A stretch of 64,000 bases of DNA, from NCBI GenBank assembly GCA_964605705.1, contig CAZSDW010000002.1:64145-128144 (forward strand). The letters run 5' to 3'. Below, one piece after another: positions 18,096 through 57,386 of the stretch. Position 1 is the first letter of the stretch. Each line of letters starts with the position of its first letter. The translations under genes and the position numbers were made by a program. A model generated the notes under the pieces. It saw only the letters and a list, made by a program, of their open reading frames with translations. It made no database searches and had not been told where the DNA came from. Source of the DNA: an uncultured bacterium. GTDB taxonomy: Bacteria > Fidelibacterota > UBA2242.

Positions 18096-18124
18096 ATGAC
18101 TTCAAATATTCTCCCCGGAGAGTT

Positions 18125-18164
18125 GAAACCTTCACAAGGATAAAAATTATCCTTCTGAAGGTTC
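18125..18164. repeat. Imperfect palindromic repeat, copy A (gaaaCCTTcacAAGGATAA-aaa-TTATCCTTctgAAGGttc); candidate bidirectional terminator / insertion boundary
   Basis: ~18-bp arms with a 3-nt loop, seen directly; a related copy lies at 20227..20297. Confidence 0.6.
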
Positions 18165-18190: not shown

Positions 18191-18643
18191 TTATTTTCTT
18201 AATTTCAGTCTGTTGATTTCCTGCTGGATTTCGGGGATTACTTCCTGATTATGGATGACTTTTTTCCCGTCATGTTTGATTGAGAACAGGTAAAAAACTT
18301 TGCCACCAAATTCTTGGGTGAATTTTTTGTGGGTTTCTTTTTGAAATCCTTTTTCTTTGTAGATTTGGGAAATATGTGTGACTCCACTGACCGGTTTGAT
18401 TTGTAATCCAATGTACTTGTCGAAGATTTTTATAAAGAAATCAACGTTGTACAATCGATCCCAGTTGTCCGGCGCCGGTTCGATTTTAACTTCGAGTAAT
18501 TTTTGTAATTGTCCGTATATTGTATTTATTTCAGTAGTATAGCCGTCAAATGTTCGATCAATAACTAACTGGTATATGTAATTGATGCAATCATCTTCGG
18601 TGATGTTTTCCACTTCAGCAGCGATGACTTCTGTAATTTTCAC
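18191..18643 (-). CDS. Hypothetical 150-aa protein, candidate cognate restriction endonuclease or specificity partner of the adjacent methyltransferase (GTG start)
   Basis: Co-directional and 180 bp downstream of the MTase in an AT-rich island. A possible degenerate PD-...QxK arrangement (NVD...LQIK) is only suggestive. Confidence 0.35.
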   Translation of the reverse strand: MKITEVIAAEVENITEDDCINYIYQLVIDRTFDGYTTEINTIYGQLQKLLEVKIEPAPDNWDRLYNVDFFIKIFDKYIGLQIKPVSGVTHISQIYKEKGFQKETHKKFTQEFGGKVFYLFSIKHDGKKVIHNQEVIPEIQQEINRLKLRK

Positions 18644-18822
18644 ATAGAGTTTGCGTCCGAGTTCTTCGATATGGTCACGTGTTCTGACGTTTTTAAATTA
18701 TATGTTCGCCATGTATCAATATCTCTTTGGGAGAACATTTTCGGATTTCTTCGGAAACGGCGCCGACATTCCGCTTAAAATTCAATTGAAAGCGGTTCAT
18801 TGCCGAGTTAAGGATCCATTCT

Positions 18823-20124
18823 TTAGCCATGAGCTGCTCGCAGATAGTCATGAAATTTGTTCATATATTTGTAATCATAGTGGTCGTCCACATCCGTCAG
18901 ACCATTTTTTAACAAGTGGGCGTTGATAAAGGTTTTATTTTTCAGATAAAGGTAACAAAGTAAATTATTTTCTTCGTCGTGTTTTATTTTGTCGAATTTT
19001 AAAAATACTTTCTGACCATTTAATTTTTCTTTAAGATAATTGACTGCCTTACCGTTTTGTGATTTATCTTCTTTTATACCAAGTAATCGGACGGTTAATC
19101 CATTATTTAATAATATTTTTTCAGGAGAAATAACCTCTTTTACGGTATAATAATCTTCCCGTTCATGGTTACTATTCGTGTCAATCCGTGAACCGAAATT
19201 CAATTTTTTAGGATCAATTTTTTTATCCAGATCATGGGGGTCTTTAAAAATGTAGGTAAGTTTTTGAATTTCTTTTTTGAAGTCGATTTTAAGATTAGAC
19301 TGTTCGAGAAAATCAAAGCTTGTTCCGAATATATCAGACTGATCCATATTTAATTTTTTCCTGATAATTGGAATAAACTCTTTGTTTATTTCATATCCAA
19401 TTGAACTTCTTCCGGTATTTAATGCTGCCAGGGAAGTAGTCCCACTACCCAGAAAAGGATCGAGGACGATATCGCCGACAAAGGAAAACATTCTCAATAA
19501 GCGCCGTGGTAATTCCTCAGGAAACATTGCTATATGTCCATCTTGTTTCGCACCTCCGAAATTCCAGTGTCCTGAAAAGTAGTTATTCCATTCCTCCTTG
19601 GTTAATCTGGATAATTCCTTATTTTCACGGCTTGGTTTTTTGGATGTTCCCAATTTTTTAAAAATTAGAATAAATTCATAATCAATTTTTAGGATTCCAT
19701 TCCTTGGAAAGGGGAAGCTGCCCATTATTGTCGCTCCGCCGCTTGTGTTGGTAGTAGTCACTTTTTGCCAGATAATAGCTCCCATATAGTCGAATCCAAT
19801 ACTTTCACAGAATTTTATAATTTCGGTTCTGATTGGAATGACTTTGTATCTACCATAGTAAATCGACCTTGCGAATTGGTCTCCAATATTGATGCAGAGT
19901 CGGCAACCATTATCTAAAACACGATAACATTCTTTCCATACAAGGTTTAAATTATTTATATAATTTTCGTAAGTATCGTTGTAACCTATTTGTCGTTTAG
20001 TACCATAGTCCTTTAATTGCCAATACGGAGGAGAAGTAATTACTAAATGTACTGATTTTTCGGGCAATTCTGCCATTTGTCGGCTATCGCCGTTGATTAT
20101 TTTATGATGGGTTTTCACGTTCAA
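18823..20124 (-). CDS. Beta-class DNA methyltransferase (N4-cytosine/N6-adenine type) fused to a C-terminal staphylococcal-nuclease-like OB-fold domain
   Basis: SPPY (motif IV) precedes DPFLGSGTT (motif I), the beta-class order. C-terminal ~100 aa (TVRLLGIKEDKS...VFLKFDK...LLCYLYLKNKTFINAHLLKNGL) mirrors the SNase fold pattern but lacks the DTPE/Arg catalytic residues. Confidence 0.8.
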   Translation of the reverse strand: MNVKTHHKIINGDSRQMAELPEKSVHLVITSPPYWQLKDYGTKRQIGYNDTYENYINNLNLVWKECYRVLDNGCRLCINIGDQFARSIYYGRYKVIPIRTEIIKFCESIGFDYMGAIIWQKVTTTNTSGGATIMGSFPFPRNGILKIDYEFILIFKKLGTSKKPSRENKELSRLTKEEWNNYFSGHWNFGGAKQDGHIAMFPEELPRRLLRMFSFVGDIVLDPFLGSGTTSLAALNTGRSSIGYEINKEFIPIIRKKLNMDQSDIFGTSFDFLEQSNLKIDFKKEIQKLTYIFKDPHDLDKKIDPKKLNFGSRIDTNSNHEREDYYTVKEVISPEKILLNNGLTVRLLGIKEDKSQNGKAVNYLKEKLNGQKVFLKFDKIKHDEENNLLCYLYLKNKTFINAHLLKNGLTDVDDHYDYKYMNKFHDYLRAAHG

Positions 20125-20226
20125 AATTTAGCTTCGTACTTAGATTGTATTTTTAATATAATGAAATTCGAAATGATTCACAACAGTCGCTGTGCTCTCT
20201 CATAATGACTGGAAATTTTGGATTTG

Positions 20227-20297
20227 GAACCTTTAGAAGGATAACAATAAATTTGCAGTTTGTCAGAAAATCGGTCAAATATCCTTCTGAAGGTTCC
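20227..20297. repeat. Palindromic repeat, copy B (gaaCCTTtagAAGGATAA - 35 bp spacer - TATCCTTctgAAGGttcc)
   Basis: Same arms as copy A, in direct orientation, separated by a 35-bp insert; directly abuts the DUF2804 stop. Confidence 0.6.
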
Positions 20298-44512: not shown

Positions 44513-44586
44513 GCGGGTGTAGTTCAATGGCAGAACACCAGCTTCCCAAGCTGGACACGAGGGTTCGATTCCCTTCACCCGCTCCA
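44513..44586 (+). tRNA. tRNA-Gly (anticodon CCC), CCA encoded
   Basis: Cloverleaf folds by hand: acceptor GCGGGTG/CACCCGC, D-arm GTTCAATGGCAGAAC, anticodon stem CCAGC/GCTGG with loop TTCCCAA, T-arm GAGGG-TTCGATT-CCCTT. Confidence 0.85.
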
Positions 44587-49527: not shown

Positions 49528-49546
49528 GATTAGGCGAATATAATTA

Positions 49547-49708
49547 ATCCTGCAATGGCAGTACGTTCTTAGAACCGTGTTTCGCACGGTGGGCACCTCT
49601 CGAACGATTCAAGTTTCCCCGACTAGGAGGCATGCTTTCCACGCCCGAAGTCCAGCTCCCATATTTACAGTGTTGGTTCTAAAAATATAGGATATGCCAT
49701 TGCAGGAT
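49547..49708. ncRNA. Structured ncRNA candidate with 6S-RNA-like architecture (strand undetermined). The alternative reading is a MITE-like element with 14-bp terminal inverted repeats.
   Basis: Termini ATCCTGCAATGGCA/TGCCATTGCAGGAT pair perfectly; a second stem pairs TTAGAACC with GGTTCTAA; internal local hairpins; lies in the gap between convergent yigZ and mazG. Confidence 0.35.
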
Positions 49709-49802
49709 AAATTTCAAAAACCTTACAATTCAATATAAACCTTAGGATACTATTGTTCAAGGCTTATTTTAAAAGTGTGATTTGGATTAAGTATCAGTGA
49801 TA

Positions 49803-56192: not shown

Positions 56193-56247
56193 TAAAAAAA
56201 TAGCTGAAGTTGGTCGATAAGCCGAATTCTGTACCCCGCCGCAGCGG

Positions 56248-56582
56248 GATGGCAGTCATTTATCTATCCACGACTTTACAGCCGGGATTAAGCGATCTAC
56301 CCGAGAACTTAACGGAACGGGCGATTCCAATTCTCTGCTTGATCTTGCTCCAGGTGGGGTTTACCCGGCTCCCGGTCTCGCGACCCGGACGGTGCGCTCT
56401 TACTTTAATCCCGCTTAATTGCAGGACGCACCATTTCACCCTTGACCACCGAAGGTGGACGGTATCGTTTCTGTGGCACTTTCCTTCTTCCGAATAATCG
56501 GAAGACTCCGTGTTACGGAGCACCCTGCCCTGCGGAGTTCGGACTTTCCTCCCCGATAAGGATCGGGGCGACTGCCTGACCA
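56248..56582 (-). ncRNA. rnpB: RNase P RNA (bacterial type A)
   Basis: Reverse complement contains GGAGGAAAGTCCG-AACTCCGCAGGGCAGGGTGCTCC, CACAGAAA, AGGGTGAAATGGTG, GTAAGAGCGCACC and GGTAAACCCCACCTGGAGCAAG blocks; P1 pairs GGCAGTC with GACTGCC. Confidence 0.9.
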
Positions 56583-56585
56583 ACT

Positions 56586-57386
56586 TCAGATTAATTCCTC
56601 CTCAATATCGGATCGAATTTCACTGGCGTCTGAATCCCAGTAAAGCAGACGACCGCAAAATTCACAACGGTTTAAAGAAGATCCAGATCGAATTTCAACA
56701 ATTTTTTGCGGGGGTACAATTTTATGACAACCTCCGCAAGAAACCTGAGCGGGAATATATTCAATATTTCCCTTTTTATCTAATTTTTCATCAAATATCT
56801 GATTAATCGGGACGATGGCAACACCGTCTTTCGCTCTGCTGATCCGATCATATTCACGGATATAACGCAGTGAAATCAACTTATGGACCTTTTCGCGTTC
56901 TGCTAATAATTTATTTTGGACGGCGTTGGTTTGCTGATTGGTTTTTTCCAGCTGTTCCCGGCGGGTTTTAATGTCACTTGATTTATCGATAAGAGTCAGG
57001 TCTTTACTTTTAATAGATTCTTTCAAACTTTCAAGTTCTTCGTTTAATTCAAGAATCTTATATTCCGCGGCATCAATTTTCTGGCGAACCGAGTCGATCT
57101 CTGTCGTCAAAGCATCATATTCTTTATTGGAGGTGACCAGGTATAATTGATCCTGATATCGTTTTAGATGTTCTTTATTATCTTCAATATCGGCTTGGAG
57201 ATTCTTTTCCTGGAGAACGATTTCCTTTTCACGATTCCGGTCTCTTTCCAGCTCTTTCTCGAGAGTATCAATATTTTTCTTTAAAGTATTCACGACCTGA
57301 GGCAAATCACCCTTCATCTGATTGATCTCAAGCAGCTTGTTATCAATTTTCTGTAGCTTTACCAGATATTCTAACTCTTTGAGCAT
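56586..57386 (-). CDS. Coiled-coil protein with C-terminal C4 zinc ribbon (COG1579-like); start placed at ATG 57386 after SD GGAGG
   Basis: Long heptad-repeat region and C-terminal CGGCH...CEFCGRLL; the longer ORF-track start would read through a terminator hairpin. Confidence 0.65.
   Translation of the reverse strand: MLKELEYLVKLQKIDNKLLEINQMKGDLPQVVNTLKKNIDTLEKELERDRNREKEIVLQEKNLQADIEDNKEHLKRYQDQLYLVTSNKEYDALTTEIDSVRQKIDAAEYKILELNEELESLKESIKSKDLTLIDKSSDIKTRREQLEKTNQQTNAVQNKLLAEREKVHKLISLRYIREYDRISRAKDGVAIVPINQIFDEKLDKKGNIEYIPAQVSCGGCHKIVPPQKIVEIRSGSSLNRCEFCGRLLYWDSDASEIRSDIEEELI

Follow-up and report, generated by a model that had tools for sequence, protein, structure and literature searches.

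Why does a DNA methyltransferase (MTase) from an ordinary restriction-modification (R-M) cassette end in a domain with the fold of a staphylococcal nuclease (SNase), and what might that domain do once its catalytic residues are gone? The question is raised by a gene on the minus strand of a 64,000-nucleotide stretch of DNA, referred to here as the window, from an uncultured bacterium of the Fidelibacterota (assembly GCA_964605705.1, contig CAZSDW010000002.1, positions 64,145 to 128,144). The gene encodes a beta-class MTase core, a lysine-rich linker and a C-terminal domain with an SNase fold, and it is the modification (M) half of a mobile cassette whose restriction (R) gene is broken. The dead nuclease domain is read below, with some confidence, as a non-catalytic accessory that would bind nucleic acid.

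The C-terminal domain and its lost active site

The list of open reading frames (ORFs) gives a mechanical ORF at 18823..20124 on the minus strand, with 433 amino acids counted from a TTG at 20124. The true start is probably the GTG at 20118, two codons downstream, since homologues begin MKTHHKI and the 100% identical database protein (P0121) has 431 amino acids. Residue numbering throughout follows the 433-residue ORF. The features of the gene and its product are as follows.

18823..20118, minus strand: methyltransferase gene, probably 431 amino acids from the GTG at 20118, going by homologue starts and the identical 431-residue protein
19360..20052, minus strand: beta-class N6/N4 amino-methyltransferase domain, residues 25-255 (Pfam PF01555, N6_N4_Mtase, E 5e-44)
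20023-20034, minus strand: SPPY motif IV, residues 31-34
19435-19461, minus strand: DPFLGSGTT motif I, residues 222-230
19234..19344, minus strand: C-terminal extension of the MTase domain, residues 261-297, with one strand (268-274) and a short helix (282-287) predicted
19153..19233, minus strand: lysine-rich linker DLDKKIDPKKLNFGSRIDTNSNHERED, residues 298-324, predicted to be disordered, conserved
18826..19152, minus strand: degenerate SNase-fold domain, an oligonucleotide/oligosaccharide-binding (OB) fold with three helices, residues 325-433 (Pfam, phmmer, AlphaFold2, Foldseek and hhalign)
19120-19122, minus strand: E335, at the position of SNase D21
19087-19089, minus strand: R346, at the position of SNase R35
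19063-19074, minus strand: KEDK, residues 351-354, at the positions of SNase D40-E43
18964-18981, minus strand: HDEENN, residues 382-387, at the positions of SNase T82-R87

The order of the motifs, in which SPPY (motif IV) precedes DPFLGSGTT (motif I), is that of class beta. Among solved structures, the MTase core is closest to TTHA0409 of Thermus thermophilus HB8 (PDB 2zie, 2zif and 2zig), which also contains SPPY, matches residues 7-258 at E 3e-59 and has a Foldseek TMt of 0.73-0.77 to the full-length AlphaFold2 (AF2) model. It is a beta-class dimer (PMC7544214). With 297 residues, it contains neither an SNase-like C-terminal domain nor a Lys-rich linker. In the full-length model the extension at residues 261-297 has a predicted local distance difference test score (pLDDT) of 69-86.

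The preliminary description of this DNA, made from the letters, had placed an SNase/OB-fold pattern at about residues 325-425 (positions 18850-19152) and described it as fused to a beta-class MTase. Both observations were borne out, as the two domains lie in the same ORF and the interval matches that of the domain as now delimited. Residues 325-433 are a true SNase fold. The Pfam SNase model PF00565 matches residues 358-426 with 28.5 bits (E 2e-6) in the full protein and with 32.1 bits (E 2e-7) on the isolated C-terminus, where the gathering score is 21. The other matches to this segment are NCBIfam staphylococcal thermonuclease models only, far under their equivalog cut-offs, as is expected for a distant relative. 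A phmmer search of the PDB sequences found SNase chains only, the best at E 0.0055.

Profile-profile comparison and structure prediction, two of the checks that had been proposed for this segment, both found the SNase similarity. Aligned by hhalign, a profile of 70 diverse family sequences matched the canonical SNase profile with a probability of 99.6% (E 3.8e-24, 110 aligned columns). The AF2 model of residues 285-433 has a pLDDT of 87-94 in the domain, and its strands (E) and helices (H) follow the SNase order, E-E-E-H-E-E-H-H. In a Foldseek search of the PDB with this model, SNase ranked first, with a probability of 1.00, template modelling (TM) scores of 0.65/0.73 and a root-mean-square deviation of 2.2-2.6 Å over ~119 columns. 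The domain retains a pLDDT of 86-94 in the full-length model, for which Foldseek gives the SNase match separately from the MTase core and finds no solved structure in the PDB spanning both. A PDB profile search with the whole-protein alignment returned methyltransferases only and added nothing for the C-terminal domain.

Compared with the type protein of the fold, S. aureus nuclease A (PF00565; PDB 1stn and 1snc), the domain shares fold and element order, together with R35, D77, D83, Y91, Y93, N100 and the alpha2 motif (F/V)-x-N-x-x-L-(I/V)-(K/R)-x-G-L. It differs in its length of ~109 residues against ~135, in its fusion to a methyltransferase and in not being secreted. The active site is also altered. 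In the profile-profile alignment D19-G20-D21-T22 becomes S-P-E-K, D40-T41-P42-E43 becomes K351-E-D-K354 and T82-D83-K84-Y85-G86-R87 becomes H-D-E-E-N-N387. The Ca2+ ligands D21, D40 and T41 are thereby exchanged for E335, K351 and E352, E43 for K and R87 for N, with K84/Y85 turned into E/E; about nine residues of the omega loop are deleted. R35 is kept, as R346, and an acid, E335, stays at the D21 position. The preliminary description had already aligned DTPE with KEDK, seen the arginine of RTDKYGR lost in HDEENN and concluded that the Ca2+-binding and catalytic residues were replaced, all of which the profile alignment reproduces.

This condition is not peculiar to the present gene; across the sequences compared, the catalytic set is lost family-wide. 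Among 121 close homologues, the D40 position is K/R in 120, the R87 position N/H in 109 and the D21 position E in 113, and R/K stands at the R35 position in all of them, as it does almost universally in the wider family. D40/T41/E43/R87 are kept by none of the family members in a table of 70 representatives drawn from 50%-identity clusters; distant members vary freely even at the D21 and D40 positions, and the vestigial site shows no conserved acidic cluster as a substitute. The sole canonical SNase in this table, P0371, keeps the whole catalytic set. It belongs, with P0349 and P0369, to the more distant search matches that are ordinary SNases, with the motifs DGDT...GVDAPE...GRLLAY; active nucleases were therefore the ancestors of the family.

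The family and its restriction-modification cassette

The two-domain architecture is widespread. A query with the C-terminal 137 residues returned 408 proteins at 57-70% identity, many with PF00565 and PF01555, and the full-length query returned at least 8000 database proteins. The top 120 full-length matches are ~430 residues long and 70-77% identical, nearly all contain both Pfam domains, and their names are 'DNA methyltransferase', 'DNA methylase N-4' and similar only. When 1.84 billion cluster representatives were searched exhaustively, 738 clusters matched at E <= 0.001. In data holding one genome per species, a relative is encoded in at least 596 genomes, and the loci of the best 80 were examined.

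The relatives in these 80 genomes are 67-75% identical. Their hosts comprise Bacteroidota, Ignavibacteriota, Chlorobiota, Desulfobacterota, Gamma- and Campylobacterota-type Proteobacteria, Nitrospirota, Elusimicrobiota, Calditrichia, Marinimicrobia, Fidelibacterota, Candidate Phyla Radiation (CPR) bacteria, a Desulfotomaculum (Firmicutes) and one Methanobacteriota archaeon. Such identity across distant taxa is the signature of a highly mobile gene. The plasmid collection contained relatives of the MTase core only, and in none of its records did the match extend over 80% or more of the protein. The two-domain architecture is already tagged in public databases. The literature search found no paper describing or testing a fusion of an MTase with an SNase-like domain.

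Averaged over pairs of family members, identity stands at 84% in the MTase core, 60% in residues 261-297, 75% in the linker and 68.5% in the SNase-like domain. The latter is full length in all 80 genome loci, with 16 invariant positions; this retention and conservation place it under constraint and mark it as no decaying relic. The strongest family-specific invariants are N396-K397-T398 and H403. D378 and D383, which align to SNase D77 and D83, are invariant as well. Within residues 298-433, 18 positions are at least 90% K/R.

The linker, with the consensus DKKIDPKKLQFGSKID, is more conserved than the SNase-like domain that follows it. Its near-invariant residues are K301, K302, D304, K306, K307, F310, G311, S312, I314 and D315. 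The pLDDT is <50 at 298-322 in the full-length model and 57-61 in the model of residues 285-433. As modelled, the linker probably becomes ordered only upon binding of DNA or of the partner subunit.

Downstream of the MTase gene lie the remains of its partner, and the two genes are flanked by a pair of palindromes.

18191..18833, minus strand: MjaI-family restriction endonuclease gene, disrupted (RE_MjaI Pfam match, tblastn, intact relatives)
18120..18164, no strand: palindromic element of ~45 nucleotides (nt) at the R-gene (downstream) end, arms 18127-18143 and 18147-18163
20221..20297, no strand: second copy of the palindrome, just upstream of the MTase gene, arms 20226-20243 and 20280-20297, spacer of 36 nt

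The ATG of the R gene overlaps the stop codon of the MTase gene (ATGGCTAA). The Pfam model RE_MjaI finds positions 1-34 of its profile in one ORF piece and positions 59-159 in another; an R gene repaired in silico matches positions 1-159 with 145 bits. By tblastn these pieces fall in two frames. The reading runs from the N-terminus to ...CSPKE, passes to IDTWRTY in a second frame and then to FKNVRTRDHIEELGRKLYVKITEV... in a third. Relative to intact relatives of 210 residues, this corresponds to two indels, one of +2 and one of -1, in a stretch of about 35 nt near 18694-18730. A single frameshift of the sequencing type was considered and ruled out, as IDTWRTY, in a third frame beside those of the two pieces, matches the intact relatives. 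By its sequence the R gene is a pseudogene here. With the R gene broken by two indels, the methyltransferase is probably now solitary in this genome. The idea that the protein might be a single-chain modification and recognition component was not upheld, because the gene is one half of a two-gene system of the MjaI type.

In the relatives, an M gene of 431 residues and an intact R gene of 210-232 residues are co-directional with an 8-nt overlap. The R gene is uninterrupted in 60 of the 72 loci with enough downstream sequence. Three loci (L033, L035 and L063) have no detectable R gene and keep the SNase-like domain. Over loci L007-L086 the R partners form at least three subtypes, two of them only ~36% identical and one a 25-31% group, and the MTases are ~70-80% identical to one another. 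The identity of the SNase-like domain between loci is 0.661 where the R subtype is the same and 0.658 where it is different. No relation was found between MTase similarity and R subtype across these loci, so the M and R genes appear to have been reshuffled.

The cassette measures 2.1 kb and has a GC content of 35.5%, against about 43% around it. The 17-mer arm of the palindromes occurs at the four listed arms only within the window (0.27 expected), and the pair suggests either insertion of the cassette into a hairpin site or duplication of that site. The flanks of the cassette share nothing with the 80 related genome loci. The cassette is horizontally acquired and mobile, of the MjaI type and now R-defective. 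For this genome, the locus is thus an ordinary mobile R-M cassette in decay, with R broken and M intact.

The CTAG methyltransferases of MjaI-family R-M systems include M.MjaI and the characterised M.MthZI of plasmid pFZ1. The latter is a beta-class SPPY enzyme, 36% identical over the catalytic domain, and its gene likewise adjoins an MjaI-family endonuclease gene. The R-M genes of M.MthZI are convergent, whereas M and R here and in the relatives overlap in the same direction. M.MthZI has 355 residues and ends in a tail of ~80 residues without an SNase match. Both MjaI and MthZI recognise CTAG (PMC2615612; PMC7708080), and both cut it (PMC2615612). Judged solely by the partner family and the SPPY motif, the target of the present enzyme would be CTAG and its product N4-methylcytosine. 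SPPY is shared with M.MthZI and TTHA0409, and N4-cytosine methyltransferases are among the PDB matches. CTAG has an observed/expected ratio (O/E) of 0.41 within the window, a value that is not diagnostic of recognition.

Role of the SNase-like domain

The reading preferred here, which is considered somewhat more credible than not, is that the gene encodes the MTase of a mobile Type II cassette of the MjaI kind, in which the dead SNase domain and the linker act as a non-catalytic nucleic-acid-binding accessory. Domain and linker would raise the affinity for DNA and/or hold the non-target strand in the MTase dimer in the manner of CcrM, and in this genome the MTase would act alone. This reading is suggested by the retained R35 equivalent, the conserved lysines, the Lys-rich linker, the absence of co-variation with R and the precedent of CcrM.

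CcrM of Caulobacter (PDB 6pbd) is a beta-class MTase with a flexible linker and a C-terminal DNA-binding domain (PMC6787082). Within the dimer, this domain binds the non-target strand non-specifically and in trans, and CcrM needs it for activity (PMC6787082). The likeness is one of architecture only, namely an MTase, a linker and a C-terminal accessory domain, and does not extend to family membership; against the NCBIfam CcrM model, whose cut-off is 830 bits, the protein reaches 47.8. The accessory domain of CcrM is SAND/PWWP-like (PMC6787082), whereas that found here is an SNase fold. CcrM is also a DPPY adenine MTase for GANTC, in contrast to the SPPY motif of the present enzyme. A possible parallel at the level of the fold is offered by the SN domains of Tudor-SN (SND1/p100), which serve to bind nucleic acid and whose SNase fold lacks the canonical catalytic residues. 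Tudor-SN is eukaryotic, combines tandem SN repeats with a Tudor domain, works in an RNA context and contains no methyltransferase.

Some observations weigh against a DNA-binding accessory. The domain carries a net charge of only about +4. M.MthZI still methylates CTAG without an SNase-like domain, so neither this chemistry nor this target depends on one. Furthermore, N396-K397-T398/H403 aligns to the beta5-alpha2 turn of SNase (residues 95-102), which we take, from SNase topology, to lie at one end of strand beta5, with the old nucleotide cleft at the other. With the invariant motif so remote from the cleft, the working surface may be a new one, possibly a protein-protein interface.

Such an interface is the essence of the view that the domain is a protein-protein module without DNA binding, serving MTase homodimerisation or docking, for example in control of the MjaI-type endonuclease. 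This is rated as unlikely. Besides the alignment of the invariant motif away from the cleft as presumed above, it can draw on the linker, which models as disordered and would allow domain swapping. Class beta MTases, including TTHA0409, are moreover dimers (PMC7544214), but in the known dimers of this class the interface is built by the MTase cores (PMC6787082). Docking to the endonuclease is at odds with the equal conservation of domain and linker beside either of the two ~36%-identical R subtypes and with the retention of the domain in the three loci where no R gene was detected. The conserved phosphate ligand equivalent to R35 and the many conserved lysines also speak against a module that does not bind DNA. 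It is less probable still that the domain is a target recognition domain (TRD) conferring CTAG specificity, an idea that gains from the ~68-75% identity of domain and linker against ~14% for the non-specific C-terminal domain of CcrM orthologues (PMC6787082). The core is also conserved, however, at 84%, and recent horizontal spread alone may account for the conservation. M.MthZI lacks such a domain although it is partnered with the same R family, and the MTase core has long loops of its own (residues 82-99, 120-150 and 183-197) where beta-class enzymes read DNA; their low confidence in the full-length model is typical of loops ordered by DNA.

The two remaining alternatives are given hardly any weight. 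The domain might still be a nuclease that uses non-canonical residues, in which case the protein would be a combined methylase-nuclease; this had been put forward in the preliminary description as the other way of reading the replaced residues. The acid at the D21 position, the arginine R346 in place of R35 and the invariant D378 and D383 would agree with it. D378 and D383 correspond, however, to SNase D77 and D83, which are outside the tabulated catalytic set and presumably structural. K/R occupies the position of the Ca2+ ligand D40 in nearly all close homologues, E43 and R87 are lost, and the omega loop with the general base is deleted. The free variation of the D21 and D40 positions in distant members and the lack of a conserved acidic cluster to replace them make such catalysis unlikely, and the cassette already has a dedicated endonuclease. 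That the domain is a functionless relic of a fusion, or its similarity a product of chance, is equally hard to credit. In its favour are the missing catalytic residues and the automatic name 'thermonuclease family protein', carried in public databases by fragments of the gene, which rests on fold-level similarity only. Against it stand the strong homology statistics (Pfam, Foldseek and hhalign) and a domain that is present at full length in every one of the 80 loci, in many phyla, with the identity and invariant positions given above. Strong purifying selection on the domain is indicated by these comparisons.

A bolder form of the accessory reading, offered here as a doubtful possibility, is an exapted single-strand grip. 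One subunit of the dimer would use its SNase/OB-fold domain and linker to keep hold of the displaced non-target strand, and flipping and methylation of the target base would meanwhile fall to the other subunit. The strand separation of CcrM would then have been reinvented with a different fold for a 4-bp palindrome, and the arrangement might also permit methylation of single-stranded DNA entering the cell. If true, the active site of a nuclease would have become a strand clamp that does not cleave, and a single R-M cassette would have taken it along into dozens of phyla.

Under the broader reading of a nucleic-acid-binding accessory, the family is a clean and widespread case of an enzyme fold recycled as a non-catalytic accessory, found in at least 596 species-level genomes. 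It would be a second, independent case beside CcrM for the role of C-terminal accessory domains in class beta MTases. Its broad distribution and clean catalytic loss make it a good experimental system. The label 'thermonuclease family protein' on the fragments misleads, since the whole family of MTases with an SNase-like domain lacks the catalytic residues.

Surroundings and outlying relatives

Outside the cassette, a neighbouring gene encodes a DUF2804 protein. Three RNA genes were located elsewhere in the window.

56202-56587, minus strand: bacterial RNase P RNA, class A
49543-49711, minus strand: 6S RNA
44513-44583, plus strand: tRNA

Together they identify the window as a segment of a bacterial chromosome. 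A separate feature of its composition is the scarcity of GGCC, with 3 sites in the 64 kb where a second-order Markov model predicts about 180 (O/E 0.02). The depletion far exceeds that of every other 4-bp palindrome, and it points to strong GGCC-specific (HaeIII-type) restriction pressure in the lineage.

Short matches of 126-240 residues were considered as stand-alone genes for the domain. They are mostly fragments on ~1-kb contigs, and of two on long contigs that were checked, one (L088) is a broken MTase gene. In that locus (L088:2118-3420) the MTase homologue is split into ORFs of 177, 71 and 139 residues, and there is no MjaI-family gene downstream. At L089:3001-3456, an ORF of 151 residues consists of the linker and SNase-like domain only. 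The genes upstream of it are unrelated, and it could be either a remnant or a free-standing gene. A metagenomic protein of 1096 residues (P0350) contains nine tandem degenerate SNase-like units (…RLIGIR/VRLKQ.AD…VNEHLL…) without a methyltransferase, and its N-terminal part resembles an anti-sigma/FecR-type region.

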